DNA from: Candidatus Moraniibacteriota bacterium
Lineage (GTDB): Bacteria > Patescibacteriota > Minisyncoccia > Moranbacterales > GCA-2747515
Direction of reading: 5' to 3'
DNA length: 64,000 nucleotides
Assembly (NCBI GenBank): GCA_016699795.1
Contig: CP065011.1
Location: 290,474 to 354,473, forward strand
Both the position numbers and the translations under genes were made by a program. The notes under the pieces are model-generated. The model made no database searches. It was not told the DNA's origin and saw only the letters and a program-made list of their open reading frames with translations. Every line of letters starts with the position of its first letter. The first letter of the stretch is position 1. This document shows, piece after piece, positions 1 through 46,406 of this stretch.

Positions 1-1982
1 GGGTAGCATCAGTAAGGAAGTTTGTTGTTCTTGAGGTTATGATATTTTGAAGCGTATAGGTAGTAGCGTCATCACTTCTATAGAGTTTGTAGTTTCCGAA
101 TCCTGTTGGAGGTTCTTCTATTGTTTTGAATCCTACGAAGGCTCGGTATTCTGGAGGGGTAAGAAGCATATTACTCGTATCTTGAGAAATGACTCGTGTA
201 GGAGTTTCTGGAGTAGTTGTGTGTATGGTTTGTGTTTCATTCCCGTATTGATCTTTGAAGCGAGTATAGACAATGTCGGGATCAGTTTCGAGTTTTATTG
301 TTACCGTTGCATTAAAAGGTTCCCAAGGAGAGTTGGTAAGGTTTTCGTCAAGAGAAATCTTCATCTGTGTTGGAGAGTCATCACTGACTCCAAGAGTAAG
401 AACAGATGTGGTGGAGGGAATGGTGAGGTCTTGAGTGGAAGCATCAACAAGGAGGGAGGGATTGGTGGGAGTTTTTGTATCGAGGGTAAAGGTATTTGAT
501 TCAGCTCGTGCGATATTATTCGCTCCTTCATTGTCACTTACGGTTACACGGATTTTTGCATTGGTAAGATAGAAAGATTCACTTACGAGAGAAGGAGTCC
601 AGGTAGCACTGTGTGTTGTGTACGTATCTTGATTCACTGTTTTGTTTTGTATATCTTCGGGAGCTAGAGTATTGGAAGCGATATTGATCCAACTACTTCC
701 ATTGTAGTATTCAAAGCTCGGAGTAACTATTCCTGGAGTATTGGTTCCGGTATTGGTATCTTCATCTTTTGTTTCGTACGTGATAGTTACTGTTTTATCA
801 GTATTGGGAGTAGTGGTTACATTTTGAATCATAGGGAAAGCATTCACAACATAGCCTACTTTTACATCATCGACTTGAGGTTGAGAAAGAAGGTCAGGAG
901 AAGAAAGATCTACTTTGTATTGAAAGAAGCGATCTTCAAAGATATCTTTCATATCTTGAGGGATAGCACTGGCTGTGCAACTTACCGTTGTATTGTTTTT
1001 TGTACAATGTGTAGTAAGAGAAGAGGGAGTAGATTGTGCTATTTGTATCCAGGGGGAAGAAGAAAGATTTCCTTTCGTTCCTGCAGTTTTGAGAGAAAGA
1101 GTTACTGAAGAACCTGTTGGGAGTATTTCATTTTCTTTCCATTCTATTGTTCCCATGACATTAGCATCACTACTGGAATCAAATGCTGAAGAGATAAGAG
1201 AACCAGCAAGGTATCCAGATTTAAGTGAACCTGCGCTTCCATCAGTTGCAGGTGCGGTAGCTCCTTTTGTTCCTCCGAGTGTTTGAATCGTTTGATTGGT
1301 AAATGTTTTGTTTTCATAGGCATAGGCGATTCTTCCTCCTCCCCCTCCTCCTCCACCACCTTGTCCCGCCCCACCATTGGCTTGAAGCTTTCCACCGTTT
1401 ATGGTGAAGTTTTTTGCATAGAGTATGTTTATAGATCCTCCTGATCCTCCTCCACCATTGGTGAGTCCAGCGCTACCGTTACTGGATATGGTTCCATAGA
1501 GGTTGAGATTGTTATTCGTTCTGATTCGTATATCTCCTCCTCCTGTTCCTCCTGTAGACTTTCCTCCTCCACTTCCAAGATCTTCGGGAACAAAGTCATT
1601 TCCATAGGTGTTAGGGGAAGTTGCTCCATCACTACTATTTCCTCCTCTTCCTCCATATGTTCCTCCTGATCCATATCCAAGAGAGCCTGTTGTTCCTGCT
1701 CCTGTTCCAAGAGTAGGAGTGTAACCTTTCGTGTTGGTGTTTATGGATGCTCCTGTACCACTTACTCCATGAATAGTGAGATTGGTAGAAATGAGAGTTC
1801 CTGTTCCATTGGCTACTATGTGTGAGGTGTCAGTAGAAGAGTTAAGAGTTCCTATGGTTATGTCTCCTGTAGTGTTAAGAGTGGTTCCTGTAGGAATGGC
1901 AAGAAGTCCTTTGTTTTTTACAATGATGTTTCCGAGAGAGAGGGAGTTGTTGGTGAAGTTGTCTTGGGGGATGAGGGTTTGG
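1..1982. repeat. Copy A of a 1982-bp perfect duplicate (partner 41486-43467)
   Basis: Track ORFs 47-499, 824-1108, 975-1286, 1144-1395 and 1429-1710 are amino-acid identical in several frames to ORFs at a +41485 offset. Nucleotide spot checks at both ends agree. Identity breaks at position 1983 (a versus g at 43468). Confidence 0.85.
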
Positions 1983-3844
1983 ACGGTAGCTGTTTGATTA
2001 TTGTTGTCTATGGTGAGGGTTCCATTGTTGGAGCCTTGGGAGGCTGTTTCGGTGTAGATGGTGCCGGCTGCTCCAAAGTTACCTTCATTTCCCCCATATG
2101 TTTGCATCGTAACCGATCCAAAGTCATTTCCTGATGTAAGCTTTACAGCGATTCGACCACCTCCACCACCATTTCTTCCGTTCGCTCTTATACTACCAGA
2201 GCCCAAAAAATATTGTGTAATTATAGAAACTGACCCACCAGATCCTCCCCGCGCTCCATCAATACCAATACTATTTGAGGTAATTAAGCCATCTACCATT
2301 ATTAATCCAGAAACTACTAATTTTATAGCACCAGCTCCTGCCACATGACTCATTCCTCCTCCACTCCCATTATTAATCGGATCTGTAAAAGAGCCATAAG
2401 TTGGGCCTAAGGATGAACCAGATCCTCCATACGAACCTTGTAATCCAGCATTTCCCGGACCACCTCCAGCATATCCCTTCCCATCCACATTAATCTGTCC
2501 TCCTGTTTGAACATCGAGATTCCCATTAATAGTAAGATCCATTTTGTAGAGTTCCGTGCTTCCATTAGCACTATGTGTCATATATCCACCGGATTTCACC
2601 GTAATATTTCCATTGAGTGTATGAGGGAGATCTGCAATAAGAGCCCAGTTTTCAATATTAAGAGATCCTTGAGGAAGATCAAAGGTTCCTCCTCGAAGAG
2701 CGATACCACTGTCTATTGCAGAAGTACCTGAAAGTCCTGTTACAGAATCGGGATTATCAAGAATAAGTGCGGTTCCTATTGGGACACTTATTTTTCCTTT
2801 GTTTTTTAGAACTAGATTTTTAATGGTCCATGTTTGGGTGGAAGGAATAGCGGTGAAGACTGAGGAAATAACATTATTATTATCAATCGTTACCGTTCCA
2901 TTTCCCGCTCCTTGAGAGGCTGTTTCGGTGTAGATGGTGCCGGCTGCTCCAAAGTTACCTTCATTTCCCCCATATGTTTGCATCGTAACCGATCCAAAGT
3001 CATTTCCTGATGTAAGCTTTACAGCGATTCGACCACCTCCACCACCATTTCTTCCGTTCGCTCTTATACTACCAGAGCCCAAAAAATATTGTGTAATTAT
3101 AGAAACTGACCCACCAGATCCTCCCCGCGCTCCATCAATAGCAATACTATTTGATGTAATTAAACCATTTAACGTTACCGATCCAGAAACTATTAATTTA
3201 ACAGCACCAGCCCCTGATATAATACTCATTCCACCACCACTACCAATATTAACAGGGTCTACAAAAGAGCCATAAGTTGGGCCTGAGGATGAACCGGATC
3301 CTCCATATGAACCCTGATATCCAACATTTCCCGGACCACCTCCAGCATATCCCTTCCCATCAACATTAATCTGTCCTCCAGTTTGAACATCGAGATTCCC
3401 TCCGATATCCATAAAGAGTCTATGCGTTTCTGCTGTTGTGTTTGCTGTGTGGGTAAAATAACCATTGTTGAGAATTGTAACATTTCCGGTAACTACAAGT
3501 TTTCTATTGGTATCATCGAGTCTATATCCATTACTCATCGTAAGGGTTGATTGAGATGCTCCTCCTCCAAGAGTAAGAGATTGTATAGTAATGGGTCCAG
3601 AGTCTACATTAAGAAGAGGTTGATTCGTTCCTGTGTAATTGATAACGACATCATCGGTGCTGGTAGGAACGGTTCCTGTGTCCCAGTTCGTTACTGTAGT
3701 CCATGCAGTGCTGGTTGTTCCTGTCCAGGTTACAGTGGAAGCATGAGTAGGAGAAGAAAAAGAAAAAAAGAAAACACAAAGAATTCCAAAAAGAAAAGGA
3801 AGGGAAGAGTGAAAGAAAAATTCTTTTTTAAAGCCATTCTTCAC
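1..3844 (-). CDS. Giant surface protein paralog, partial: C-terminal part lies beyond the window start, N-terminus at 3844
   Basis: A continuous minus-strand reading frame is homologous to the 38907-46406 ORF. The N-terminus reads (GTG)KNGFKKEFFFHSSLPFLFGILCVFFFSFSSPTHASTVTWTGT, a signal peptide closely matching the start of the big gene. There is no in-frame ATG; a TGA stop lies 8 codons upstream of the GTG at 3842-3844. Bases 1-1982 are identical to 41486-43467. The ORF is open to the window edge, so it is absent from the ATG-to-stop ORF track. Confidence 0.6.
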   Translation of the reverse strand, partial: MKNGFKKEFFFHSSLPFLFGILCVFFFSFSSPTHASTVTWTGTTSTAWTTVTNWDTGTVPTSTDDVVINYTGTNQPLLNVDSGPITIQSLTLGGGASQSTLTMSNGYRLDDTNRKLVVTGNVTILNNGYFTHTANTTAETHRLFMDIGGNLDVQTGGQINVDGKGYAGGGPGNVGYQGSYGGSGSSSGPTYGSFVDPVNIGSGGGMSIISGAGAVKLIVSGSVTLNGLITSNSIAIDGARGGSGGSVSIITQYFLGSGSIRANGRNGGGGGRIAVKLTSGNDFGSVTMQTYGGNEGNFGAAGTIYTETASQGAGNGTVTIDNNNVISSVFTAIPSTQTWTIKNLVLKNKGKISVPIGTALILDNPDSVTGLSGTSAIDSGIALRGGTFDLPQGSLNIENWALIADLPHTLNGNITVKSGGYMTHSANGSTELYKMDLTINGNLDVQTGGQINVDGKGYAGGGPGNAGLQGSYGGSGSSLGPTYGSFTDPINNGSGGGMSHVAGAGAIKLVVSGLIMVDGLITSNSIGIDGARGGSGGSVSIITQYFLGSGSIRANGRNGGGGGRIAVKLTSGNDFGSVTMQTYGGNEGNFGAAGTIYTETASQGSNNGTLTIDNNNQTATVQTLIPQDNFTNNSLSLGNIIVKNKGLLAIPTGTTLNTTGDITIGTLNSSTDTSHIVANGTGTLISTNLTIHGVSGTGASINTNTKGYTPTLGTGAGTTGSLGYGSGGTYGGRGGNSSDGATSPNTYGNDFVPEDLGSGGGKSTGGTGGGDIRIRTNNNLNLYGTISSNGSAGLTNGGGGSGGSINILYAKNFTINGGKLQANGGAGQGGGGGGGGGRIAYAYENKTFTNQTIQTLGGTKGATAPATDGSAGSLKSGYLAGSLISSAFDSSSDANVMGTIEWKENEILPTGSSVTLSLKTAGTKGNLSSSPWIQIAQSTPSSLTTHCTKNNTTVSCTASAIPQDMKDIFEDRFFQYKVDLSSPDLLSQPQVDDVKVGYVVNAFPMIQNVTTTPNTDKTVTITYETKDEDTNTGTNTPGIVTPSFEYYNGSSWINIASNTLAPEDIQNKTVNQDTYTTHSATWTPSLVSESFYLTNAKIRVTVSDNEGANNIARAESNTFTLDTKTPTNPSLLVDASTQDLTIPSTTSVLTLGVSDDSPTQMKISLDENLTNSPWEPFNATVTIKLETDPDIVYTRFKDQYGNETQTIHTTTPETPTRVISQDTSNMLLTPPEYRAFVGFKTIEEPPTGFGNYKLYRSDDATTYTLQNIITSRTTNFLTDAT

Positions 3845-3940: not shown

Positions 3941-4130
3941 TCTCCCTGAGGAAAAGGGAGTACCCGAGTCTTTGAGGGGGAGGGATTTGTATTGATTTCA
4001 CAAAAGAATTTCATACAAAGAAAATCCCCCTCAATCCCCCTTTTTCTAAGGGGGAGGAATTAGCTCTGGATTGCCACGACTGAGTACAGCCTCACAAAAA
4101 CGGAAGGACTCATTTGCCTCACTACGCTCA
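3941..4130 (-). promoter_or_regulatory. Conserved 5' leader/upstream element of the giant-protein gene (paralog of 46438-46575)
   Basis: Two conserved blocks are shared with the upstream region of the other giant gene: tctccctgag(g/a)aaaagggagta..gatttgta and cctcaatccccctttttt(c)taagggggag(g/t)aattagctctggattgccacgactgag(t/c)acagcctcacaaa(a/g)acgga. This copy has an extra ~32-nt insert. The blocks contain hairpins ctccc..gggag and ccccc..ggggg. Confidence 0.4.
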
Positions 4131-4221: not shown

Positions 4222-5337
4222 TTATTTTGACTTAAGAATATATTCGCTCAGTATCTGATAATAGGTAGAAAGAGAAGGAATATTCACCCATTCCTCATCA
4301 CTTCCAATCCCTCCCCCAATCGGACCAAATTCTATACCAGGACATCCTCTTTGCGAAAAATGTCTTGCGTCAGATGATCCCTGTGCTCCGCGAAGAATAA
4401 CCTCTTTTTTTAAAATTTTCTTGGAAATAGCTTGTAGTAATAGCAAAGAATTATTCTTTGGATCCGTATATAGAACATCTTCATCCACGAGAATTTCTAA
4501 AGAAAAATTTTTCGGCATAAGCTTCTTCAACTTCTCCAAAAAGATTTCTTTTTCTCCCAAGACAAAACGAACATCGAAAGAAACTGAACAATCATCCGGA
4601 ATTTTGTTATACGCCTTATTTGAAGTTTCAATAGAATTCAAATTAAGTGTTGTAACCCATTGTTCTTGTTTTGGAAATGTATATTCTTTCTGAATATTTG
4701 AAAGAAAATTATGCATCATCCAAATAGCATTCTTCCCTCTCCATGGATAAGCACCATGAGCCGTCTTTCCTTTAGCACTTATTTTCAATATCAAAATTCC
4801 TTTTGCTTGATGTACAATATCAAAATTTGTAGGTTCTGCTGAAAGAACGAAGTCTGTTAAAACACCTTTTTCTATCTGATATTTAGTTCCATCAAATCCC
4901 CCAACCTCTTCATCAGTCACTAATTGTAAACCAAGTGGATACGAAACACGATGTGCCATCTCTTGAAATGCTATTATAAGACAAGCGATATTCGCTTTCA
5001 TATCCATCGCTCCCGCACCATAAAGTCGATCATTTTTTATCACTGGGATGAATTGATTTTTTTTGGCAGGAATAATATCTAAATGACCATTAAGAAGAAG
5101 TGTAAATTTTTTGGGTCTTCTTTTTTTATTATAAATCAAAACACTTTTTACTCCATTTCTTTCGAAATATTCTTTATTAAAATCTTGAAAATGAGAAAGG
5201 GTAAACTGAAAAATTCTTTCTAGCTCTTTTTTATTTTCAAAAGAAGATTGAAATGTAATAAGTTTCTTCGCAAGGGAAAGTATTTTTTCGGTCATATAGT
5301 TTTTCTCATTTCTCATTCTTTTATAAAACTTCAGCAT
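4222..5337 (-). CDS. M20-family metallopeptidase (ArgE/DapE/ACY1-like deacylase)
   Basis: Motifs NGHLDIIP, GAGAMDMKANIA, LSAEPTN and GSSDA fit the M20 metal-binding and catalytic regions. The start may be the internal Met at 5295 (MTEKIL). Confidence 0.7.
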   Translation of the reverse strand: MLKFYKRMRNEKNYMTEKILSLAKKLITFQSSFENKKELERIFQFTLSHFQDFNKEYFERNGVKSVLIYNKKRRPKKFTLLLNGHLDIIPAKKNQFIPVIKNDRLYGAGAMDMKANIACLIIAFQEMAHRVSYPLGLQLVTDEEVGGFDGTKYQIEKGVLTDFVLSAEPTNFDIVHQAKGILILKISAKGKTAHGAYPWRGKNAIWMMHNFLSNIQKEYTFPKQEQWVTTLNLNSIETSNKAYNKIPDDCSVSFDVRFVLGEKEIFLEKLKKLMPKNFSLEILVDEDVLYTDPKNNSLLLLQAISKKILKKEVILRGAQGSSDARHFSQRGCPGIEFGPIGGGIGSDEEWVNIPSLSTYYQILSEYILKSK

Positions 5338-5493
5338 TCATTCTCTAAAAATTTCTTACCTTTCATCTTTTTATCTTTTGTTATATTTTCTCTGTAAAAA
5401 AGCTATTCTAAGGAGCTCATTCAAAAATAAAAAATGGACCGCATATTCCTTTTGAGAATATACGGTCTTTATCTTAGCACAGCTTATGACCTG

Positions 5494-6957
5494 CTAAGAA
5501 ATGATTTCAGCCCATACCGTATATCGACTTCCATGATTTCTTCCCTTCTGAGCTTCCACTGAATCCGTAGGAAGGAAGGCTCGAAATCCACCGATAAACA
5601 TAGGCTCTTCATCAATCATTGTCATGAAGTTTCTATCAATGTAGGCGTATTCAAACCCATCTACCTCATTAATTGTTTTGGGTATTTCCATTTCGGGTTG
5701 AATGATATACCCCCCTGGACGTCTGGAAAGATTATGACGCAATTCTCTCCGAAGTCTCCTATCCGGAAGTGCTCCAGACAAATGTCCGTAACATCCAAAT
5801 GTTCCTTTGGCAGGCTTTAATCGAAGGTTTTTCTCCCCAATTTCTACCTCGAGAGGATCTATCATGAAATCTCTCAAAAATCTCGAAAAATCTTGAGATA
5901 GCCGAAAGGAATCAAAAGGAAATTCTCTGTATTTCTTGCCCATCGCCAAGTGCGTTGTGAATTCAAAAGAATACAAATCATTTTCACTCTTGATAGGAAA
6001 TGCCATTCCCATAGGAGACATATAATCTTTCGTGTCATTGATACGATTTTCTGTCGCCATATCAGGAGCATCCACATTGAATGTGAGCGCGTGTTCTTTT
6101 ATTATCCTCCTCATTTCAGGATTAGCCAGAAGTGGATGCTCGACGAAAACATCCGGATTTTTGAGCTTTTCGATCGGATCTGATGTACGAGCATACAAAA
6201 GATACTCACATTTTCCCTTATTGGCCTTGATATACTGCTCGAATTCATAAGGGCCAAAAAACCGATCAAAACCAGAAAGTGCGAATGTTTCCACATCGGT
6301 CAAAATCGAATCCTTTTCATGACCGAATTCTAACTCTTTCATCGCATTGTATTTTTCTTGCGTTACCGCAAGGAGAGCAATCGGTTTCCCAAATCGCTTA
6401 CGAATTTTCAAAAGAGTTTGGCGAAATCCTTTTTTAAAGAAGGACTCTTCTCCTCGAGCAAAAAGATTCTCGAGCAGTTGGTACATTGCCAAACTATTTT
6501 CAATTTCAAAAATACGACGACGAAGAATTTCGCGAACATCTTCTTCAGACATTCCTTCTATTTCCTGGAAAAACTTTTTCGTAAGTCCAGACATATCTAT
6601 CTGAACTCCATAGTTGACCGGGCATCCTTTCGAAAGACAGAATCGGTAATCAGTTTCCCATTCACGATTCGCCTCTACAAGAGAGTGAAACGTTTTATTG
6701 TATTCTTGATACAGAGTACCGAGCGCTCGAATCACTACTTCGGGATAAATAATCTGATGTCCCGAAAAAGCATAGAAGGGTGCGTTAGAAGAACGAATGG
6801 TATCACATTCAGAAATGATGCCTTGCTCATAAGGAATATACATGAGAATTACCTCTTTTTTGATAATTGACAATTCAATTGATGGAAAAGAACAAAAAAA
6901 CCGATCTCTTTTGGGAGGCCGGTTTCTTTTTGGAGGTAATTTGTATACATTTTTCAA
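5494..6957 (-). CDS. Hypothetical protein, possibly an ATP-grasp-type ligase
   Basis: Long ORF whose likely true start is 6843 (MYIPYEQ). The C-terminal region KPAKGTFGCYGHLSGA...GGYIIQPEMEI...FEYAYIDRNF...GGFRAF resembles the ATP-grasp nucleotide-binding core. The family is not identified. Confidence 0.45.
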   Translation of the reverse strand: MKNVYKLPPKRNRPPKRDRFFCSFPSIELSIIKKEVILMYIPYEQGIISECDTIRSSNAPFYAFSGHQIIYPEVVIRALGTLYQEYNKTFHSLVEANREWETDYRFCLSKGCPVNYGVQIDMSGLTKKFFQEIEGMSEEDVREILRRRIFEIENSLAMYQLLENLFARGEESFFKKGFRQTLLKIRKRFGKPIALLAVTQEKYNAMKELEFGHEKDSILTDVETFALSGFDRFFGPYEFEQYIKANKGKCEYLLYARTSDPIEKLKNPDVFVEHPLLANPEMRRIIKEHALTFNVDAPDMATENRINDTKDYMSPMGMAFPIKSENDLYSFEFTTHLAMGKKYREFPFDSFRLSQDFSRFLRDFMIDPLEVEIGEKNLRLKPAKGTFGCYGHLSGALPDRRLRRELRHNLSRRPGGYIIQPEMEIPKTINEVDGFEYAYIDRNFMTMIDEEPMFIGGFRAFLPTDSVEAQKGRNHGSRYTVWAEIIS

Positions 6958-7239
6958 TTTCCTTCAAAAACAAGCCGGTCTCCCTTTATAAAGAGGACCA
7001 TAAAAATAATTCCAAAAAAATTTACTTGTTGTTCGTGATTATTCATACAACATAGAATAAAAAACAAAGGGTTTCTTGTCAAATTTTGGACTCTGTAAAA
7101 AATAATGCGGTACTTACACAATGTATGTTTTTTTCTAGAAATTCAACATCAAGACATAAGTATACTCAAAAAATCTCAATAAAATCATATATTCATTTCA
7201 ATATCAAATACAAAAAAATTATTTTCATTATAAATAATT

Positions 7240-7521
7240 TTGAGTCTCTTCAGTTCTTTATTGCACAAAATTGTTAAAAATAATATAATTAGGAACATGG
7301 AAATAATACTATTCATAATAATCATTGTTCTATTTGTTTATTTTAATAACAAAATAAACAATATTGCTATTTTATCGGATAAACAAACAAAAGTGATTGT
7401 TGAATTTCTTATTTCAAAACTTCAAGAAAAAGACATTTTTAAAAATGATGAGGTTGATCATTTGTACCAAGAGATAAACCAAAAAATTAAAGAAGAAGTT
7501 AAGGTCAATGAATATAAATAA
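7240..7521 (+). CDS. Small hypothetical membrane protein (likely start 7297, MEIILFIIIIVLF)
   Basis: An AGGA sits just upstream of the 7297 ATG and one TM helix is predicted. It lies in an AT-rich, gene-poor 1.2-kb stretch. Confidence 0.25.
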   Translation: MSLFSSLLHKIVKNNIIRNMEIILFIIIIVLFVYFNNKINNIAILSDKQTKVIVEFLISKLQEKDIFKNDEVDHLYQEINQKIKEEVKVNEYK

Positions 7522-8146
7522 ACACAAATACTTGTCATAAATCAATTTAATAAATATGCATTTATGATAACAACATCAGAAATGAGGGGAAGAGAAGAAA
7601 AAAAATCAACAGAAAATCACTTCAAAGGAATGCCCAAAGAAGAAATTTCAGAGGAAATGAGGACTATTAAACTTATTAAGGCTGAAAACCCAAATAAAGA
7701 AACTCTGGCTACATTTTCAGCTGAGTTTATTTCAGTTCTTAATAAATCGGCGTTGAAAGAAGAAAAATTGGAAGGAAAAAAAGACTAACTTTCATATCCA
7801 ATACATTACTCTTCTGGAAGTATATCTTTGTTATCTTCAACAATAGAGCTTAGCCTATCCGTCAATTCTTTTTTTGACGAATATTTTTTATTTTCTAGAA
7901 AATTTTTTCTCTTCCCTCTATCCCACCTTCTTTTTCTCTTTCTTTCAAGAAAAAACCAACCTCAATAAAAAAATTCTGAAGTAATCTCTCGTTGTTCTTC
8001 CTGTATTACTTTAATTTGTTTGTAAACTTTTTTGGGAGAAAATTTTTTTCCGTTACTACGGATTTTCCCGTTTTTTGTTCTAAGGTCTTGCGTACATCCT
8101 TGGCGATTTTTCCTCAAGAAATTCACTCTTTTTACAAAAAACATTA

Positions 8147-8668
8147 TCAATGAAAATCACATAAAAAGAATTCTCCTGAATTCATTGCTTCACATCCTCC
8201 GTAAAAATATGGCACTATAATAAATACTATTTGCAAAAGAACAAAAAAAATACAAATTCCAGCAATGATTTTTTGGGCTCGTAGATTTTTGATAGAAGAA
8301 GATACGAAATTTGTAATTATATAAAATAAAATGAGATAAAAAAAAGTTCCAAAAAACAAACCAGTAAAATTAGGGTAAGTACCACAAAAAAAAGCCTCTT
8401 TATTAATACAACGATCTGCAAGAAATTCTATACCCAATATATTTTCATCTATAAAAACAAGAGGAATTTCTATAAAAATAAAATAGAAAAAGGCAGTCGG
8501 AATCGCTCCTATTCCAAAGCCAATAAACTTAAAAATCATCATACTAGAAGGATATCCTGAAAAAAAAGCAACTCCCAAAGAAAACACGACAGGAAAAATC
8601 AAAAAAAGAAAAAGAGAGAATGTAAGTAAACTCGGCTTTATGACAAAACATTTCTTTATAAAATTCAT
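8147..8668 (-). CDS. Hypothetical polytopic membrane protein
   Basis: 173-aa ORF with 4-5 hydrophobic helices. No recognisable family. Confidence 0.45.
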   Translation of the reverse strand: MNFIKKCFVIKPSLLTFSLFLFLIFPVVFSLGVAFFSGYPSSMMIFKFIGFGIGAIPTAFFYFIFIEIPLVFIDENILGIEFLADRCINKEAFFCGTYPNFTGLFFGTFFYLILFYIITNFVSSSIKNLRAQKIIAGICIFFVLLQIVFIIVPYFYGGCEAMNSGEFFLCDFH

Positions 8669-8947
8669 AAGGCTATATATTTATTTGATTATTTTTTTCT
8701 TCATACATTTTTAAATTTCCAGATTTTTTCATTTTCTTCGTTAATCAGATGAATTAATCTCTACCCAAAACTGATATTGTCTTTTAAAAAAATTGCGATA
8801 ATCTTCCTTCTATGCCACTTTTTGAAATCTTTGCAAAATTACAAATGTCATCAATTGAAGCACCATTTCAAGATAAAAAATAAAAATAGTTTTCTTCCCC
8901 TTCTGATTTCTTGTTAGATTTTTTTGCAAAAAAAGAAGTTTTTTTCT

Positions 8948-11329: not shown

Positions 11330-11468
11330 ACATTCGATTATTATCTATTTTGAACAACTACTTTCAAGAATTCATTTTACTCTATGAGAATTCTTTATTC
11401 CTTCGATCCTTATTATCTTTTTACAGAAATGGAGAAATTTTCTTTTCTATTTCCACTATTACACTTCT

Positions 11469-12491: not shown

Positions 12492-12503
12492 ACCTGTTTT
12501 AGT

Positions 12504-29184: not shown

Positions 29185-29187
29185 ACT

Positions 29188-35073: not shown

Positions 35074-35429
35074 ATTCTTCTTTCATTTAAAAATCAATAT
35101 TTATTTTTTCTTTTATAATTTTAATTATATCAGTTTATTTCAAAAAAAAGAAATTTTTCTCTTTCCCTGGTAAATATAGATTATTCTTATCCAAAACACC
35201 ACTTACAATTAAAAACTTTGAAGAAGTACTTTTTATATTTTTATAAAGGGATTTATTTTTTCATCATACACAGTATCGCGTTTTTTCATTTTTTTCTTTG
35301 TTGTCCTCTATTTTCTATTCTTATTTCTTATATATAAGTATGAATGTATATTTCTTGTTTAATTTTCTTTCAAAAGAATACTTGTGCTATACTTAAAAAA
35401 AGAAAAAATTAAAAATAGAACTTTCTTTC

Positions 35430-36959: not shown

Positions 36960-37033
36960 CTCCTCTCCAAAATAATTCCTGATAAGATTTTTTCATTTTT
37001 CATTTTATAATATTTACTCCTTTATTTATTTTT

Positions 37034-37573: not shown

Positions 37574-37659
37574 AAATAGAAAAGCTTTAGAAAAAACCTT
37601 TTTTGTTTTCAATATTTTCTTCTATTGTACTATTCCCTTTTTAAAAGAAAAAGAAGAGA

Positions 37660-38703
37660 TTATTCTTTATCTATTTCTTCTTTTTTCTCTTTTGTATATT
37701 CTTCGGCAATAGAACTAATAAGTTTTCGAATATCCCCCATAGCACCATCTTCTAAAATAGAGCAAATAAGAACTCGAGGATTTTTTCTTTTCAATGATCG
37801 GACTACTTTTTTTACTTCTTCTATTGTTTGTTCATCAGATCGAGAAACCAAAACCCATTCAGGTTTTTCCAAAAGCGTTGGATTGTAAATACCCAATTCT
37901 TTTCGAATATTTTTATAATCCAATAACGGATGCTCACTTGTAGCATTTACAAGGTGAAATAAAACACGAGTTCTTTCAATATGTCTCAAAAATTTATGTC
38001 CCAAACCTTTACCCTCTGAAGCACCTTCGATAAGGCCTGGAATATCTGCCAATAAAGTTCCGTAATACATTCCCAAATGAGGCTCCAGCGTAGTGAAATT
38101 ATAATTTCCTACTTTACTTGATGATCGGGTAAGTGCATTCATTAGACTCGATTTTCCAACATTAGGATAACCAATAAAACCAATATCCGCTATAAGCTTT
38201 AGTTCGATATCTAAAGTTGCTGCTTCCCCTACTTTTCCAAGAGTTGCTTTATCCGGACTAGTTTTTCGGCTTGATCGAAAATGAAAATTTCCAAAACCTC
38301 CCCTTCCTCCATGAATAACCGTTATTCTTTGATCTACGAATAATATTTCGTATACCTTATTATTTTCTCGATTTCTAGCAACAGTTCCTACTGGAACCCG
38401 AACCAAAACATCTTTTCCATTATGTCCTGTTTTTACATTCTGACCGCCATTCCTTCCATCTTCAGCAAATATAGGTTTCTTGGATCGAAAAGCTCGAAGA
38501 GCTCCAATATCTGCGACACCCACGAGAACAACATCTCCCCCTCGACCACCATCTCCTCCCGTTGGTCCATACGTTTTCATCGTTCCAGAAAATTGGACAA
38601 CTCCATCTCCACCCTTTCCGGCAGAAACTTTGAGAGTAATTTCATCAATAAGCATATTCGTAAAAAAAAGAGAATTAACAAGGAACTCTACCACGAAGCC
38701 CAA
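37660..38703 (-). CDS. obg: GTPase Obg (likely start 38655, MLIDEITLKV)
   Basis: Obg-fold Gly-rich N-terminus GKGGDGVVQF...GGDGGRGGDVVL, and a G domain GFIGYPNVGKSSL...DIPGLIEGAS. Confidence 0.85.
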   Translation of the reverse strand: MGFVVEFLVNSLFFTNMLIDEITLKVSAGKGGDGVVQFSGTMKTYGPTGGDGGRGGDVVLVGVADIGALRAFRSKKPIFAEDGRNGGQNVKTGHNGKDVLVRVPVGTVARNRENNKVYEILFVDQRITVIHGGRGGFGNFHFRSSRKTSPDKATLGKVGEAATLDIELKLIADIGFIGYPNVGKSSLMNALTRSSSKVGNYNFTTLEPHLGMYYGTLLADIPGLIEGASEGKGLGHKFLRHIERTRVLFHLVNATSEHPLLDYKNIRKELGIYNPTLLEKPEWVLVSRSDEQTIEEVKKVVRSLKRKNPRVLICSILEDGAMGDIRKLISSIAEEYTKEKKEEIDKE

Positions 38704-38906: not shown

Positions 38907-41900
38907 CTACCCTCCCGTCCAAGCAAAGATTTCTTTGAAGTTCTTTATGATGAGTTCTACAACAGATTCTTTTGTTTGTGGTGTAAGGGTGATGTAGTCT
39001 TTGGTTATGGTTTCATTCCCACTCAGATCTTTTACTATGACTTTGTAAGAGTAGAGAGTTCCTGGTTTCCAAGAGGTGAGTACAATGATGTGATTCTTTG
39101 TTGGGGAAGAACTTACATTCACTGTTTTTTCTTCTCCTGCTCTTCCTTCTTTGTAGATGAGGGAGGAAGAAGCATCTTCATCTGTTTGCCAGTTAATAAT
39201 CATTTGTACTTTTCCGTTTTGTGAAAGAGCGGAGTCGGTAGAGACTCTTTCTACTGTAGGAGAAGTTTCATCTTTTTGCATAGTGAATTCTATCTCATCA
39301 GAGAGAGTTTCATTTCCCATATCATCTCTGACTCGTACAGTAAGAACGTAGTTTTCTCCAGGAGTGAGTTCTTTGAGGGTGAGGGAGTGAGTTTGGAGGA
39401 GGGAGGGATTTCCTTCACTCTTTTGATCTTCTTCTTTGTTTTTGTTTTTGTAGGTTACAAGAGAGTCGGTAAGAGTATCAGTAAGGAAGTTTACTTTTGC
39501 TTCTCTGTCTGAAAGAACTTCTATCTTGATTTCTTTGATTTGTGGTGGAGACTTTGGTTCAAAGGTAGAGTCGGAAGAAGAGAAGAGATTTTTTGATTCA
39601 TCTTCTCCTTTTACTCGGAAGTGGTAGGTAGAGTTTTCTAAAAGATTGTTTATGATAATTTCATGATCTTTTTTGAGTTCTTCACTTTTTCTTGTTTGTC
39701 CATAGTTTTCTGTGTTTCCATATTCAACAATAGAGGTAGTGGGAGTGGAAGTTTTCCATGTGATAGTTGTTTCCCCTATTTGTTTGGAAGAAGCTTTAAT
39801 GGAAGAGATGGAAGAAGGAGATTGCGTTTGGAAGGTTTGTTGGGAGGAGGTGCCTATGTTTCCGGCGGTGTCGGAAGATCCTGTGGAGAAGAAGTATTTA
39901 GTAGATGGGATGAGACCTCGAAGAGTTACGGAGTGGGAGGTGGTGTATTTGGTGGGGTCGAAACCTGTAATACTATCAATTGTGGCATATTCAAGGTCTT
40001 TTGTCGTACCATATTTTACTCTACTATCAGAAACTTCATCCGTCTCCCAACTCACCACTGCACTCTCTCCTGTAATGTCTTTGACTTTGACTCCTGAGAT
40101 AGAGGGAGGAGTAGATTCTGCTTGTTCACTTCCACTGTCTACTTGTTTGAGTTTTGTTGTGAAGCTTTTTTCTTCACTCTCTATGAGGGTTCCAAGATTA
40201 TCTTCACAAAGAAGTTTGTAGAAGTAGGTTGTGTTAAAGATGAGTCCTCCAAGATGCAGGGAATGGAGTGTGTCATAGATTCCTGTCGCTTCTGTTTGAG
40301 GAACTTCTTGGTAGTTTCTTGATTGGGTTCCATATTCAAGGATGCAGTTTGCTGCTTGATCCGTCTGGAAGGTTATGACTGCTTTTTGATCAGTGAGTAC
40401 TTTAGGAGGATCACTGATAGTATGAATCTTTGAAAGAGGTGCATGATTGTATTCTGGATCTAAGGTTGTTTTCATTGTTTGTATATCACTCTGTGATTCG
40501 TTTTGATTGATATCTTTAACACTCACTTGATATTCATACTCTGTATCAGGAGTAAGAGTATCGAGTACCCTGTAGTGAGATCTATCGTATGTTGTTCCTT
40601 GTTCTGTTTGTGTGAAGGTAAGGCTTCCTTTTTTTCTGTACTGAAGGAGGAAGGATGCTTCTTCATCTGTGTTTGCTGTAATAACTGCTTTGTCATTTGA
40701 GATAAGAGATGTTTGAAGATTCGTTATGGTAGGAGGTGTTTCGTCGAGTGTTGTAGAGAATTGAAAATAGTTTCCTCCATTATTGTCATTGGCAATGTTT
40801 CCTTGTGAGTCGGTGGAGGTAACGTAGAAATAGTAGGTGGTTCCTTGAGTAAGAGCATCTAAGGTTACTTGATGATTTTTTGTAAGAACACTTGATCCGG
40901 AGAGAGTGATAGGATCGATAAGAGATCCATTCTTGTTTTCACTGTAATGGAGTACAGAGTCTGCAGGGACATTCGTATTCCAGAATATGGTTGCTTGTGT
41001 GTTAGAAGCACTTGATACCGCTACACCACTGATAGAAGGTCCAGGATTCGTTGTGACTTCATATCCATTGCCATTATTGTCATTGACTCCGGTATTGCCT
41101 TGAGGATCAGTAGAGGCAACTCTAAAGAAGTAGGGAGTGTTTGGTGTGAGGTTGGTAAGAGTGACTCTATGAAGTCCTGATTGTGCTTGGGTGTCAGCAT
41201 AGGTAGAGACTCCTGTTTGTTTGGTATAGGTGTTGGGAGTGGTTGCATATTCTACACGAGAGTCAGAGAGTTCATCTGTTTCCCATGTGATAGTTACGGT
41301 TGTGGTGTCTTTAGATTCTACGGTTACGTTTTGTAGAACAGGAGGGGTTTGATCTGATCCTCCTCCACCTTCTCCGAAGTCTTGAATACCATTTGCTTTC
41401 ATCGTAACGGTTTGTGAGAAGAAAGAAACATTTCCTGGTGTGTCTGTTGTCTTTGCTTTGTAGGTGTAGAGAATGTCTGGTTGTGGGGTAGCATCAGTAA
41501 GGAAGTTTGTTGTTCTTGAGGTTATGATATTTTGAAGCGTATAGGTAGTAGCGTCATCACTTCTATAGAGTTTGTAGTTTCCGAATCCTGTTGGAGGTTC
41601 TTCTATTGTTTTGAATCCTACGAAGGCTCGGTATTCTGGAGGGGTAAGAAGCATATTACTCGTATCTTGAGAAATGACTCGTGTAGGAGTTTCTGGAGTA
41701 GTTGTGTGTATGGTTTGTGTTTCATTCCCGTATTGATCTTTGAAGCGAGTATAGACAATGTCGGGATCAGTTTCGAGTTTTATTGTTACCGTTGCATTAA
41801 AAGGTTCCCAAGGAGAGTTGGTAAGGTTTTCGTCAAGAGAAATCTTCATCTGTGTTGGAGAGTCATCACTGACTCCAAGAGTAAGAACAGATGTGGTGGA

Positions 41901-44900
41901 GGGAATGGTGAGGTCTTGAGTGGAAGCATCAACAAGGAGGGAGGGATTGGTGGGAGTTTTTGTATCGAGGGTAAAGGTATTTGATTCAGCTCGTGCGATA
42001 TTATTCGCTCCTTCATTGTCACTTACGGTTACACGGATTTTTGCATTGGTAAGATAGAAAGATTCACTTACGAGAGAAGGAGTCCAGGTAGCACTGTGTG
42101 TTGTGTACGTATCTTGATTCACTGTTTTGTTTTGTATATCTTCGGGAGCTAGAGTATTGGAAGCGATATTGATCCAACTACTTCCATTGTAGTATTCAAA
42201 GCTCGGAGTAACTATTCCTGGAGTATTGGTTCCGGTATTGGTATCTTCATCTTTTGTTTCGTACGTGATAGTTACTGTTTTATCAGTATTGGGAGTAGTG
42301 GTTACATTTTGAATCATAGGGAAAGCATTCACAACATAGCCTACTTTTACATCATCGACTTGAGGTTGAGAAAGAAGGTCAGGAGAAGAAAGATCTACTT
42401 TGTATTGAAAGAAGCGATCTTCAAAGATATCTTTCATATCTTGAGGGATAGCACTGGCTGTGCAACTTACCGTTGTATTGTTTTTTGTACAATGTGTAGT
42501 AAGAGAAGAGGGAGTAGATTGTGCTATTTGTATCCAGGGGGAAGAAGAAAGATTTCCTTTCGTTCCTGCAGTTTTGAGAGAAAGAGTTACTGAAGAACCT
42601 GTTGGGAGTATTTCATTTTCTTTCCATTCTATTGTTCCCATGACATTAGCATCACTACTGGAATCAAATGCTGAAGAGATAAGAGAACCAGCAAGGTATC
42701 CAGATTTAAGTGAACCTGCGCTTCCATCAGTTGCAGGTGCGGTAGCTCCTTTTGTTCCTCCGAGTGTTTGAATCGTTTGATTGGTAAATGTTTTGTTTTC
42801 ATAGGCATAGGCGATTCTTCCTCCTCCCCCTCCTCCTCCACCACCTTGTCCCGCCCCACCATTGGCTTGAAGCTTTCCACCGTTTATGGTGAAGTTTTTT
42901 GCATAGAGTATGTTTATAGATCCTCCTGATCCTCCTCCACCATTGGTGAGTCCAGCGCTACCGTTACTGGATATGGTTCCATAGAGGTTGAGATTGTTAT
43001 TCGTTCTGATTCGTATATCTCCTCCTCCTGTTCCTCCTGTAGACTTTCCTCCTCCACTTCCAAGATCTTCGGGAACAAAGTCATTTCCATAGGTGTTAGG
43101 GGAAGTTGCTCCATCACTACTATTTCCTCCTCTTCCTCCATATGTTCCTCCTGATCCATATCCAAGAGAGCCTGTTGTTCCTGCTCCTGTTCCAAGAGTA
43201 GGAGTGTAACCTTTCGTGTTGGTGTTTATGGATGCTCCTGTACCACTTACTCCATGAATAGTGAGATTGGTAGAAATGAGAGTTCCTGTTCCATTGGCTA
43301 CTATGTGTGAGGTGTCAGTAGAAGAGTTAAGAGTTCCTATGGTTATGTCTCCTGTAGTGTTAAGAGTGGTTCCTGTAGGAATGGCAAGAAGTCCTTTGTT
43401 TTTTACAATGATGTTTCCGAGAGAGAGGGAGTTGTTGGTGAAGTTGTCTTGGGGGATGAGGGTTTGGGCTGAAGTGGAAATGTTGTTGTTGTCTATGGTG
43501 AGGGTGCCATTGTTGGGGCCTTGAGAGACAGTTTCAGTGTAGATGGTTCCGGCAGCTCCACCCACTCCAAATGATTGCATTGTTACTAATCCGAAATCGT
43601 TTCCAGAGGTAAGTTTGACAGCAATACGTCCACCGCCACCACCATAAGTAGTATTTAAAGATCCGTTTGTATTCATAGCACCAAAACCTGAAAATATTTC
43701 TGTAAAAATATTTATCGTACCACCAGAGCCACCAAAAATACCTGAAGAAGAGATAGCTCCGTTAAGTATTAACGTTCCAGAGATAACTAAAATAACAGAT
43801 CCCCCACCAGATCCATTACTATAGGAATAACCAGATCCTAAATTAATAGGATCTGATATTGATCCATAAGTTGAGCATCCGGAAGATCCTTGTCCTCCAT
43901 ACGCTGGAGTCCCGCAATATCCTGGACCACTTCCTTGTCCATACCCCTTCCCATTCACATTAATTTGTCCTCCAGTTTGAACATCGAGATTTCCTCCGAC
44001 ATCCATAAAGAGTCGGTGGGTTTCTGCATTTGTATTTGCTGTGTGGGTGAGGTAACCATTATTGAGAATCGTAACATTCCCAGTAACGGTGAATTTGTTG
44101 GTTGGGGAACCGTTACTAACAGTAAGAGTAGAAGTAGTAGATCCTCCTCCAAGAGAAAGGTTCCCTCCTATAGTTTGAGGTGCGGTTGTAGTAAGATAGA
44201 TTCCATTTATAGAAAGTGTTCCGGAAGAACTAAGAAGCGTTCCTCCATTTACATTGATTCCACTTGTTCCAAGTCCGTCATTAGTAATCGTTGCTCCCGT
44301 AAGATCAAGAGTGGTTCCTGTGGGAACACTGATTTGTCCTTTGTTTTTTAAAACTAGATTTTTAATGGTCCATGTTTGGGTGGATGGGATAGCGGTGAAA
44401 ACTGAGGTTGTTTGATTATTATTATCAATAATCACCGTTCCATTTCCCGATCCTTGACTTGCTGTTTCGGTGTAGATAGTACCGGCGGCAGTGCCCAATC
44501 CTCCATACGATTGGATAGTAAGAGATCCAAAATCATTTCCCGAAGTGAGTTTAACGGCAATACGTCCACCAGAACCATATCCGTAAGCACCTCCTGATGT
44601 TCCTGTGTAACCATTAGTATAAATACTTCCTGAACCTGAAATATTTGTTGTTGTAATATTAACAGATCCTCCAGAAGAAGGTCTGTCACTTGGGGAGTGT
44701 GCACTTGCAATAATTTGCCCATTAAGAATGGTTGATCCTAAAATATTAAGAATAACAGCCCCTCCCCCAATTGTATAATAAGCTCCTGTTCCAAGATTTA
44801 TAGGATTAGTAAGAGATCCATATGTTGGTCCTACTGAACTAGCCTGTCCCCCATAAGAGCAATTACCACTATTCAATCCGGGACCAGCATTATTGTATCC

Positions 44901-46406
44901 CTTTTCTTTTACATTAATTTGTCCTCCAGTTTGAACATCAAGGTTTCCGTTAAGTGTAAGATCCATTTTATAACTTTCAATATTTCCATTCGCACTGTGC
45001 GTCATATACCCACCAGATTTTACGGTAATGTTTCCCGTAATTGTTGTGGGAGAATCAATAATAAGTGCCCAATTTTGAATATTAAGATTTCCATCAGAAA
45101 GTAAAATTGCTCCCCCACGAAGCGCAATACCATTTATTGAGTTCGCAGCAATTCCTCCACCAACAACAGAAATATCATCTATATTTCCAAAAATTACTCC
45201 TGTTACCGAATTTTGATTATCTAAAGAAACTGTCGTTCCTGTAGGGACACCAAGAACTCCTCGATTTTTTACTATCAAATTTTTAATAATCCACGTCTGC
45301 CCTAAAGGAATAGCTGTTGTATAAAAAGTAGATTGACTATTATTATCAATAATCACTGTTCCATTTCCTTCTCCTTGACTTGCAGTTTCGGTATAGATAG
45401 TTCCAGCTGATCCATTCCCTGACCCACCAACGCCCCCATATGCTCGCATCACAATAGATCCAAAATCATTTCCCAAAGTGAGTTTAATAGCAATACGTCC
45501 ACCAGCACCTGATCCGTAAGTTTGAGATACTCCGTTTACTTGAAACAATCCAGATCCTGTGATGGTTGAAGTTGTAACATTTATAGAACCTCCCGAAGAA
45601 CCCCTATCACTAGGAAGTCGACCATTTGCAAGAATTTGTCCATTAATTATAATTGCTCCCGAAATATTCAAAATAACAACACCACCTCCATTTGAAACAG
45701 TATATCCACTACTTCCAAGATTTATAGGATTAGTAAGAGATCCGTATGTTGGTCCTAAACCAACTTGTCCTCCATGAGAACAATTACCATTATTTATTCC
45801 AGGACCACTACCAGCATACCCCTTCCCATCCACATTAATCTGTCCTCCGGTTTGAACATCGAGATTGCCTCCGACACTCATGAGAAGTCTATGCGTTTCT
45901 GTTGTGGTGTTTGCTGTATGCGTAAGATAACCATTGTTGAGAATCGTAACATTTCCTGTAACATTCAATTTTTTGTTTGTATCATTTCCGTTGTACCCAT
46001 TACTCATAGTAAGAGTAGAAGTTGATGCTCCTCCTCCAAGAGTAAGAGATTGTATAGTAATGGTTCCACCATTTACATCGAGTGTAGGTTGATTCGTTCC
46101 TGTGTAATTTATAACAACATCATCTGTGCTTGTAGGAACAGTTCCTGTATTCCAGTTCGTTACTGTAGTCCAAGCAGTGCTTGTTGTTCCTGTCCAGGTT
46201 ACAGTGGAAGCATGAGTAGGAGAAGAAAAAGAAAAAAAGGCTCCAAGACATCCGAGTAAGAGGGAGAGAGAAAAAGAAAAAAATGATTGTCTTTTTATGG
46301 TTGCTTCATGCATCTTTTTTCTTTTTGAAGTATCGAGGAGAACACTCTTAAAAGTACCACAGAAATACCTTTGGAACAAGAAGGAATTTATTTTCTGTGT
46401 GTGCAA
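38907..46406 (-). CDS. Giant secreted surface protein with beta-helix-like repeats and fibronectin-III-like modules
   Basis: 2499-codon ORF. The likely start is the ATG at 46313 (MHEATIKRQSFFSFSLSLLLGCLGAFFSFSSPTHA, a signal peptide). The first ~1000 aa are Gly/Asn/Thr-rich repeat modules (GGNLDVQTGGQINV[DN]GKGY..., GGRIAVKLTSGNDFG...TIYTETASQG), then 10 or more ~95-aa FN3-like modules (T.I.W.TDE.SDS.V.YG...........H.V.L..L.P.T.Y.FRV...D..GN). Confidence 0.8.
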   Translation of the reverse strand: MHTQKINSFLFQRYFCGTFKSVLLDTSKRKKMHEATIKRQSFFSFSLSLLLGCLGAFFSFSSPTHASTVTWTGTTSTAWTTVTNWNTGTVPTSTDDVVINYTGTNQPTLDVNGGTITIQSLTLGGGASTSTLTMSNGYNGNDTNKKLNVTGNVTILNNGYLTHTANTTTETHRLLMSVGGNLDVQTGGQINVDGKGYAGSGPGINNGNCSHGGQVGLGPTYGSLTNPINLGSSGYTVSNGGGVVILNISGAIIINGQILANGRLPSDRGSSGGSINVTTSTITGSGLFQVNGVSQTYGSGAGGRIAIKLTLGNDFGSIVMRAYGGVGGSGNGSAGTIYTETASQGEGNGTVIIDNNSQSTFYTTAIPLGQTWIIKNLIVKNRGVLGVPTGTTVSLDNQNSVTGVIFGNIDDISVVGGGIAANSINGIALRGGAILLSDGNLNIQNWALIIDSPTTITGNITVKSGGYMTHSANGNIESYKMDLTLNGNLDVQTGGQINVKEKGYNNAGPGLNSGNCSYGGQASSVGPTYGSLTNPINLGTGAYYTIGGGAVILNILGSTILNGQIIASAHSPSDRPSSGGSVNITTTNISGSGSIYTNGYTGTSGGAYGYGSGGRIAVKLTSGNDFGSLTIQSYGGLGTAAGTIYTETASQGSGNGTVIIDNNNQTTSVFTAIPSTQTWTIKNLVLKNKGQISVPTGTTLDLTGATITNDGLGTSGINVNGGTLLSSSGTLSINGIYLTTTAPQTIGGNLSLGGGSTTSTLTVSNGSPTNKFTVTGNVTILNNGYLTHTANTNAETHRLFMDVGGNLDVQTGGQINVNGKGYGQGSGPGYCGTPAYGGQGSSGCSTYGSISDPINLGSGYSYSNGSGGGSVILVISGTLILNGAISSSGIFGGSGGTINIFTEIFSGFGAMNTNGSLNTTYGGGGGRIAVKLTSGNDFGLVTMQSFGVGGAAGTIYTETVSQGPNNGTLTIDNNNISTSAQTLIPQDNFTNNSLSLGNIIVKNKGLLAIPTGTTLNTTGDITIGTLNSSTDTSHIVANGTGTLISTNLTIHGVSGTGASINTNTKGYTPTLGTGAGTTGSLGYGSGGTYGGRGGNSSDGATSPNTYGNDFVPEDLGSGGGKSTGGTGGGDIRIRTNNNLNLYGTISSNGSAGLTNGGGGSGGSINILYAKNFTINGGKLQANGGAGQGGGGGGGGGRIAYAYENKTFTNQTIQTLGGTKGATAPATDGSAGSLKSGYLAGSLISSAFDSSSDANVMGTIEWKENEILPTGSSVTLSLKTAGTKGNLSSSPWIQIAQSTPSSLTTHCTKNNTTVSCTASAIPQDMKDIFEDRFFQYKVDLSSPDLLSQPQVDDVKVGYVVNAFPMIQNVTTTPNTDKTVTITYETKDEDTNTGTNTPGIVTPSFEYYNGSSWINIASNTLAPEDIQNKTVNQDTYTTHSATWTPSLVSESFYLTNAKIRVTVSDNEGANNIARAESNTFTLDTKTPTNPSLLVDASTQDLTIPSTTSVLTLGVSDDSPTQMKISLDENLTNSPWEPFNATVTIKLETDPDIVYTRFKDQYGNETQTIHTTTPETPTRVISQDTSNMLLTPPEYRAFVGFKTIEEPPTGFGNYKLYRSDDATTYTLQNIITSRTTNFLTDATPQPDILYTYKAKTTDTPGNVSFFSQTVTMKANGIQDFGEGGGGSDQTPPVLQNVTVESKDTTTVTITWETDELSDSRVEYATTPNTYTKQTGVSTYADTQAQSGLHRVTLTNLTPNTPYFFRVASTDPQGNTGVNDNNGNGYEVTTNPGPSISGVAVSSASNTQATIFWNTNVPADSVLHYSENKNGSLIDPITLSGSSVLTKNHQVTLDALTQGTTYYFYVTSTDSQGNIANDNNGGNYFQFSTTLDETPPTITNLQTSLISNDKAVITANTDEEASFLLQYRKKGSLTFTQTEQGTTYDRSHYRVLDTLTPDTEYEYQVSVKDINQNESQSDIQTMKTTLDPEYNHAPLSKIHTISDPPKVLTDQKAVITFQTDQAANCILEYGTQSRNYQEVPQTEATGIYDTLHSLHLGGLIFNTTYFYKLLCEDNLGTLIESEEKSFTTKLKQVDSGSEQAESTPPSISGVKVKDITGESAVVSWETDEVSDSRVKYGTTKDLEYATIDSITGFDPTKYTTSHSVTLRGLIPSTKYFFSTGSSDTAGNIGTSSQQTFQTQSPSSISSIKASSKQIGETTITWKTSTPTTSIVEYGNTENYGQTRKSEELKKDHEIIINNLLENSTYHFRVKGEDESKNLFSSSDSTFEPKSPPQIKEIKIEVLSDREAKVNFLTDTLTDSLVTYKNKNKEEDQKSEGNPSLLQTHSLTLKELTPGENYVLTVRVRDDMGNETLSDEIEFTMQKDETSPTVERVSTDSALSQNGKVQMIINWQTDEDASSSLIYKEGRAGEEKTVNVSSSPTKNHIIVLTSWKPGTLYSYKVIVKDLSGNETITKDYITLTPQTKESVVELIIKNFKEIFAWTGG
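41486..43467. repeat. Copy B of the 1982-bp perfect duplicate, inside the complete giant gene
   Basis: Same evidence as copy A. Flanking sequence remains homologous but diverges. Confidence 0.85.

Follow-up and report, generated by a model that had tools for sequence, protein, structure and literature searches.

The Two Giant Genes and Their Identical Block

The stretch of DNA analysed here, called the window in what follows, covers 64,000 nucleotides of contig CP065011.1 (positions 290,474 to 354,473, forward strand) from a Candidatus Moraniibacteriota bacterium. It contains two giant paralogous genes, putatively coding for surface proteins, which share a long block of exact identity. The first one, QQS61592 (P0002), encodes a protein of 2140 residues and will be referred to as the edge gene: it starts with a GTG codon at 3844 and continues for 859 codons (about 2.58 kb) past the left window edge, the translation of positions 2-3844 corresponding to its first 1281 residues. 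The second one, QQS61620 (P0121, 2468 residues), will be called the big gene. It was listed as an open reading frame (ORF) spanning 38907-46406, the actual ATG being at 46313, and the translation of 38907-46313 is identical to the accession.

Base-by-base comparison of positions 1-1982 with 41486-43467 gives 0 mismatches over 1982 nt, as had been claimed in an earlier note on this DNA. The two copies form a direct repeat with a spacing of 41,485 bp, both being coding on the minus strand, and a self-comparison of the window revealed no further repeat of similar quality. The right-hand boundary of the block is sharp: ungapped identity is 57% over the next 200 bases, and gapped alignment gives about 66% over the next 540 bases or so and about 71% over the remaining 5' parts. 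Chance is ruled out as the source of such a long identity, because the longest exact match between the diverged parts of the two genes is 57 nt.

The left end of the block coincides with the edge of the window, which is not a contig end, and 1982 bp is thus a lower bound. At the protein level, which is the level of all comparisons beyond the window, QQS61592 and QQS61620 have a common exact C-terminal suffix of 1519 residues. This corresponds to 4557 nt plus the stop codon, and exactly to positions 38907-43467. On the 3' side, identity therefore continues to the end of the gene, the diverged flank being found on the 5' side alone, and the right-hand DNA boundary marks where a constant region begins, which extends to the gene end. 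The 2-kb size given in the earlier note holds for the visible part of this region but not for the unit itself, which measures at least 4.56 kb. In the same way, the 70-80% similarity attributed to both flanks was slightly too high for the 5' flank and does not apply to the 3' flank, which is not diverged. The suspicion of a partial assembly artefact at the window edge found no support, since the edge gene continues as an intact 2140-aa protein, of which the window translation is an exact prefix, on a contig of 1,186,598 bp.

The synonymous positions are the most telling. The 5' parts of the two genes, hereafter the heads, have a synonymous divergence (dS) of 0.99 and a nonsynonymous divergence (dN) of 0.31 over 589 aligned codons, whereas the block shows 0 differences at 485 synonymous sites (660 codons). 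Purifying selection on the protein is insufficient to account for this contrast. The N-terminal cap is nearly identical as a protein, yet its dS amounts to 0.4-0.6, which indicates that the genes are old and that conservation of the protein does not suppress synonymous change. The total lack of synonymous change in otherwise old copies thus argues for a recent homogenisation of the constant region.

A Family of Seven Paralogs with Exchangeable Pieces

The earlier note described two paralogous genes; there are seven of them in the genome. A protein search with the big gene retrieved five proteins, 83-95% identical to it in their best local alignments, and a cluster look-up yielded two more as well as the accessions. 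The family, carried by the single 1,186,598-bp contig of this metagenome-assembled genome (MAG), consists of QQS60964 (1639 aa), QQS60985 (2300 aa), QQS61126 (2628 aa), QQS61440 (2399 aa), QQS61592 (2140 aa), QQS61620 (2468 aa) and QQS61822 (1639 aa). The seven genes sum to 45.6 kb, which is 3.8% of the genome. They are dispersed, with protein accession numbers spanning about 860 genes, and all their reading frames are intact over 1639-2628 codons. Five paralogs are full length, each with its own signal peptide. The two others, QQS60964 and QQS61822, start in the middle of a beta-solenoid module, without signal peptide, and they differ from each other solely in a patch of one FN3 domain, at 23 residues.

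In the alignment, the last 1500 residues or so are 100% identical in all seven proteins, with the exception of two segments, a central cassette and the FN3 patch. The cassette exists as two alleles, with 33-82% identity in 40-column windows: allele B, found in QQS60985 and QQS61126, is about 120 residues longer than allele A. The patch, 55 residues long, has four alleles of 51-76% mutual identity, embedded in 100% identical sequence. Patch allele 1 is found with three different heads, and allele 4 is a mosaic of pieces from alleles 2 and 3. Heads, cassette alleles and patch alleles thus assort independently across seven dispersed loci, and gene conversion, by which segments are repeatedly exchanged across long stretches of common homology, is the simplest explanation. 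The recent gene conversion or recombination proposed in the earlier note finds support both in this mosaic of seven paralogs and in the synonymous contrast (0/485 in the block, about 0.99 in the heads).

Table 1. Features of the giant genes and of their surroundings in the window
Feature	Position	Strand	Remark
Edge gene (QQS61592, codons 622-1281): constant region as far as visible in the window	1..1982	-	Exact identity to 41486-43467
Block copy matched to 1-1982	41486..43467	-	Exact identity
Full constant region, big gene (QQS61620 residues 950-2468 and stop)	38907..43467	-	1519-aa suffix shared with QQS61592
Variable head, edge gene: GTG start 3844, signal peptide, N-terminal cap, two beta-solenoid modules	1983..3844	-	64-71% nt identity to the big-gene head, dS 0.99
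Variable head, big gene: ATG 46313, signal peptide, N-terminal cap, three beta-solenoid modules	43468..46313	-	AlphaFold2 model
Central cassette, allele A	41973..42602 (big gene), 488-1117 (edge gene)	-	Two alleles in the family
55-aa hypervariable patch of one FN3 domain (allele 1)	39870..40034	-	Four alleles in otherwise identical sequence
Conserved hairpin-rich element upstream of the edge gene	4024..4105	-	94% identical to 46487-46567, fold z-score -3.9
Conserved upstream element of the big gene	46487..46567	-	Match to 4024-4105
Housekeeping genes between the repeats: M20 peptidase, pheT, pheS, tyrS, ileS, obg, pth, glycosyltransferases, others	4222..38703		Pfam scans

Modular Architecture of the Proteins

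The full-length members display a common layout, with a signal peptide, a conserved cap, a head of two to three beta-solenoid modules (about 270-300 residues each) and the constant region. The latter comprises one more beta-solenoid module, which corresponds to the first 280 residues or so of the identical block, followed by beta-sandwich domains, an FN3 array and a conserved C-terminal motif. The beta-sandwich domains are conserved in distant homologues of other lineages of the Candidate Phyla Radiation (CPR), and the head modules have 50-69% identity between paralogs.

Matches to Pfam are confined to the FN3-type domains of the C-terminal third (PF16656, E = 8e-49, in 7 stretches; PF00041, E = 5e-22). 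The AlphaFold2 (AF2) model of the variable FN3 domain is a seven-strand sandwich (mean predicted local distance difference test, pLDDT, of 90), so profile matches and fold agree on the FN3 class. The variable positions of the patch map in this model to three strands (C, C' and F) and to the C'-E loop; strands A, B and G are invariant, as is the remainder of strand E. In the FN3 topology, strands C, C', F and G belong to one sheet, and the variability of the patch therefore looks, on the model, like that of one exposed face of the domain.

Searches against NCBIfam and against PDB sequences gave no match for the head or for the remaining protein outside FN3. Residues 36-345 of the big gene were modelled with AF2 from an alignment of 29 modules, and the model, a confident one (pLDDT 88; predicted template modelling score, pTM, 0.90), shows short beta strands throughout, as in a beta-solenoid. 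Foldseek comparison of this model with the PDB found no significant neighbour (best E = 1.7). The top-ranked structures, non-significant, are mostly beta-helical: autotransporter passenger, TpsA/hemolysin and HMW1 secretion domains, ice-binding proteins and tailspikes. The proteins do not fall into the class of autotransporter or two-partner secretion (TPS) adhesins, as no barrel or TPS profile was detected in the Pfam and NCBIfam searches of the protein. Cluster representatives matching a profile of the solenoid module number 9,776 at E ≤ 1e-10 and 5,773 at E ≤ 1e-30; the matches listed are giant proteins with 3-12 tandem matches each. The head is thus built from a widespread, unnamed module. 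At the sequence level, this glycine-rich module of about 270 residues (43468-46208 and 1983-3740, also 42624-43466, minus strand) carries the motifs GKGY..GPG, GSGG, GGGGRIA, AGTIY and DNNN, and has no Pfam match.

Two members show additional features at the N-terminal side. QQS61126 has a LamG-type N-terminal extension. In QQS61440 (P0001), residues ~150-430 and ~430-710 form a 100% identical tandem duplication of a solenoid module of about 279 residues, which implies that the number of modules can change by unequal recombination.

The amphipathic C-terminal motif, ESVVELIIKNFKEIFAWTGG, corresponds to the final 20 residues of the big gene (window 38910-38969, minus strand). Motifs of the same type are found at the extreme C-terminus of distant homologues in many CPR lineages, for example ENIVQVIISNFYDIFRWTRR and ESVVDLIVNNVEEMFGFLRR, and no Pfam or NCBIfam model covers them. 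This motif is a candidate sorting or envelope-anchoring signal. Altogether, the signal peptide, the beta-solenoid heads and the FN3 stalk suggest that the family consists of surface adhesins for the host cell.

Probable Concerted Evolution of the Constant Region and Alternative Explanations

A sharp identical tract within paralogs, a near-zero dS next to a high one and mosaic combinations of segments are all found here, as is usual for concerted evolution. It is thus probable, in our opinion, that the constant region, at least 4.56 kb in each of the seven genes, is kept uniform by gene conversion, the heads being kept diverse by selection. General homologous recombination between the dispersed copies, in the form of non-reciprocal gene conversion of RecA type, would repeatedly overwrite the constant region, and its zero synonymous divergence would be the result of this repeated overwriting. 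Sequence divergence would block tracts that homogenise the heads, the cassette or the FN3 patch, or else selection, which presumably acts on head diversity, would remove them. The genome would thereby retain a repertoire of different heads on one stalk. A reciprocal crossover between the two repeats of the window would delete pheS, pheT, tyrS, ileS, obg and pth. Since essential tRNA-synthetase genes would be lost, only the non-crossover products of conversion are expected to persist.

Ordinary homologous recombination seems preferable to a dedicated device, because no reverse transcriptase, site-specific recombinase or transposase was detected within the window by Pfam scans, no patch template is found there and the genes lack slippery tracts. 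Neither known RNAs nor tRNAs that could serve as recombination targets were found in the window. The giant genes contain no homopolymer of 8 nt or more, the only such tracts being a T8 and an A8 upstream of the edge gene, and the tandem repeats in or before them are trivial short ones. Slip-strand phase variation was rejected for lack of slippery tracts inside the genes. A site-specific invertible or shufflon-type switch does not fit either, as the repeats are direct and 41.5 kb apart, with no recombinase in the window.

Several points weigh against conversion balanced by selection. The DNA available covers 1.6 of the 7 copies, the identity of the others being at the protein level, and RecA is not encoded within the window. 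The adhesin role is deduced from the architecture, and the solenoid model has no significant neighbour in the PDB. Moreover, the perfect identity might come in part from consensus polishing with multi-mapping short reads, and one recent round of duplications with later replacement of the heads would give the same pattern. These last two points amount to distinct explanations, which have to be weighed.

Polishing is the most serious caveat. The seven loci would be real and their constant regions would differ by up to about 1-2%, the identity having been created by multi-mapping of the short reads. Zero mismatches over 1982 nt and 100% protein identity over about 1500 residues in seven copies are indeed the expected product of such a process, and a single 1.19-Mb contig with seven 4.5-kb repeats implies a long-read assembly. 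The QQS accessions presumably belong to the Aalborg activated-sludge MAG series, and this genome may be one of its members. The Aalborg study of activated-sludge MAGs, which lists closed Moranbacterales MAGs, combined Canu and Flye assemblies with Racon, medaka and Illumina polishing (PMC8012365). However, the alleles of the 55-aa patch and of the cassette were left standing, so that only small differences could have been lost, and all seven frames are intact over their whole length. Even at a true identity of 98-99%, the contrast with a head dS of about 1 would still require homogenisation. Polishing as the origin of the identity is thus unlikely, though a milder form of the artefact might be at work: short-read polishing might have erased small differences between the copies and could turn 98-99% identity into 100%, without removing the contrast with the heads.

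The second explanation is that the constant region is merely young, owing to a recent burst of duplication after which old, diverged heads were recombined on, for instance by transfer from other strains. It would leave the same static picture of a young constant region with old heads, and the identical tandem module of QQS61440 shows that very recent duplications do occur in the family. Yet at least six independent head replacements would be needed, all at one module boundary, as well as separate exchanges of cassette and patch, and the seven copies are dispersed over a range of about 860 accessions. Repeated conversion over the shared tract covers all these observations with one process. We consider the burst somewhat less likely still than polishing.

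A programmed variation from silent cassettes, in which a few expressed genes would receive segments from promoterless partial copies and thereby switch head, cassette or patch, must also be considered. The truncated QQS60964 and QQS61822, which start within a module, lack a signal peptide and differ in the FN3 patch only, could be such donors, and the variable segments are indeed bracketed by long identical sequence. Against this stand the five full-length copies with signal peptides of their own, as well as the absence of a dedicated recombinase within the window and of slip-strand tracts in or before the genes. Both copies visible as DNA are in addition preceded by a conserved upstream element, which argues against a single expression site. 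We therefore consider such a programmed system improbable.

Diversity-generating retroelements (DGRs) are common in CPR genomes, and the FN3 patch, a short hypervariable stretch within an otherwise invariant domain, is reminiscent of their targets. A DGR is nonetheless very unlikely here. The window contains neither a reverse transcriptase nor a template repeat, the patch DNA having no second copy there that resembles a template. The alleles, which are mosaics of each other, differ at 24-49% of the 55 positions, and some of these differences are conservative changes in the framework of two strands. The domain has an FN3 fold rather than that of a C-type lectin.

Comparison with Known Systems

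The homogenisation by gene conversion favoured above has precedents. The closest analogue is the ligA/ligB pair of Leptospira, in which a block extending from -266 to +1890 is identical apart from minor coding differences, which has been attributed to gene conversion (PMC7821625). As in the present family, paralogous surface adhesins made of Ig-like domains share a long near-identical block, the remainder of each gene being unique (PMC7821625). The polarity is different: in ligA/ligB, the identical part is the 5' end with the promoter, whereas the present family shares 4.56 kb at the 3' end, its upstream element being no more than 94% identical. The lig genes number two instead of seven, and their products are lipoproteins made by a diderm pathogen. 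A functional analogue is provided by babA, babB and babC of Helicobacter pylori, which occupy several loci. They are nearly identical in their end segments but have diverged in the binding regions, and inter-locus gene conversion changes the displayed adhesin. The bab paralogs are, however, beta-barrel outer-membrane proteins encoded by genes of about 2 kb, with a central variable part, and their switching was shown experimentally, whereas the present family is known from sequence.

In terms of design, the nearest counterpart is Giant1-5 of Apilactobacillus kunkeei. These five giant secreted proteins take up about 6% of a small genome, with recombination tracts detected across the genes (PMC12863079). 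They are described there as having a signal peptide, an N-terminal beta-solenoid (in most of them), long repeats and a conserved C-terminal part (PMC12863079). Unlike the present family, their genes are in tandem, with alpha-helical repeat stalks and DUF5776/SH3b ends, and in the passages of that paper considered here no multi-kilobase identical block between paralogs is mentioned, the recombination described being between strains.

Further parallels can be drawn with Neisseria pilE/pilS, Mycoplasma genitalium mgpB/MgPar and Borrelia vlsE, where dispersed partial copies and long shared homology also permit segmental conversion of a surface protein. In contrast to these silent-cassette systems, the present copies are mostly complete genes with their own signal peptides, and no single expression site is evident. 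The polymorphic toxin loci of the Rhs and contact-dependent inhibition (CDI) type also have a large conserved core, near-identical between paralogs, with a sharp junction to a variable end. Their polarity is reversed, the variable ends being C-terminal toxin tips accompanied by immunity genes, and the present family gave no Pfam match to YD/Rhs repeats or to signatures of toxins or immunity proteins. Compared with all these systems, the family stands out by its shared 3' end, its seven copies, the extreme identity over 4.5 kb, its three variable regions and its CPR host.

Distribution of Related Loci

When GTDB genomes were scanned with a profile, 21 loci emerged, with homologues in 21 species; most of these are CPR MAGs whose labels read Moranii-, Wolfe-, Paceibacterota or Patescibacteria. 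The sole genome with two loci (L004 and L006) showed no BLAST match of at least 300 bp between them; this comparison carries no information, as repeats of this kind are beyond what short-read MAGs can assemble. A search with the big protein gave no match in genome contigs, and only two weak, unrelated loci (L001 and L002) in metagenome contigs. Several homologous loci (L003-L007, L011 and L013) lie in MAGs labelled 'uncultured Bdellovibrionales' or 'Bathyarchaeia archaeon', although the closest named relatives of the family are Patescibacteria. These labels may reflect mis-binning, mis-labelling or a wider distribution of the family.

A comparable case was noticed in another family. Two ENA proteins of 2124 residues each, P0100 and P0112, have a common exact C-terminal block of 878 residues, including FN3, and are less than 90% identical outside this block. 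They contain PhoD-like and peptidoglycan-binding domains, and may represent the same pattern of constant tail and variable head in another organism.

Possible Significance for Host Contact

The concerted evolution of paralogous surface proteins is a mechanism well known from pathogens; the setting is new. To our knowledge, host recognition and attachment by CPR/Patescibacteria are largely unexplained, and we know of no adhesin-switching system of this kind described for Patescibacteria. With 3.8% of a 1.19-Mb genome spent on seven versions of a giant secreted protein, the family provides candidate host-contact molecules, and the heads and one face of an FN3 domain are designated as the parts that would meet a variable partner.

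An adhesin or antigenic switching, as evoked in the earlier note, is plausible in view of the architecture. A more ambitious version, which we find doubtful, is that this ultra-small CPR bacterium, presumably host-attached, has a combinatorial adhesin repertoire, in which the truncated copies act as silent donors and conversion is a genuine switching system. If this were true, a constant stalk with three independently exchangeable regions (the solenoid heads, the cassette and the FN3 face) would allow switching for host range or for evasion of phages or host defences.

There is also a practical consequence. Seven near-identical repeats of 4.5 kb will break or collapse short-read assemblies, so that most CPR MAGs will systematically lack such families or contain them in truncated form.

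Upstream Element and Other Genes of the Window

The hairpin-rich element found before both giant genes has a 27-mer core that occurs only twice in the window, once before each of them. Its predicted fold has a z-score of -2.1 at the big gene, compared with -3.9 at the edge gene, and it has no Rfam match. It may be a shared promoter or 5' leader, or else an intergenic repeat. In a wider delimitation, the conserved sequence extends over about 130 nt, 100-250 nt upstream of the giant genes (~3930-4110 and 46425-46575, minus strand), one hairpin being longer in the edge copy owing to an insertion of 33 nt.

Elsewhere, the window consists of ordinary small-bacterium chromosome, with almost every gene on the same strand; it encodes, among others, tRNA synthetases, obg, pth, glycosyltransferases and a DUF4012 protein. 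The isoleucyl-tRNA synthetase ORF (22344-25844, minus strand, 1166 aa) contains a histidine-phosphatase domain (PF00300, E = 8e-34, residues 512-688; insertion at ~23781-24311), located directly after the first tRNA-synt_1 match (residues 25-504). As the tRNA-synt_1 family matches in two stretches, this domain probably splits the catalytic core, which would be an unusual fusion or insertion. A C-5 cytosine DNA methylase (57011-57961; PF00145, E = 2e-93) lies between two ORFs without Pfam match, and the corresponding region (55940-58814, minus strand) may be a restriction-modification system. Lastly, two secreted-type repeat proteins are encoded between the giant genes (19533-21527 and 29649-31406, both on the minus strand): a DUF5122 beta-propeller protein, with internal repeats in a register of about 147 bp (20181-21096), and a protein with three LamG-like domains.

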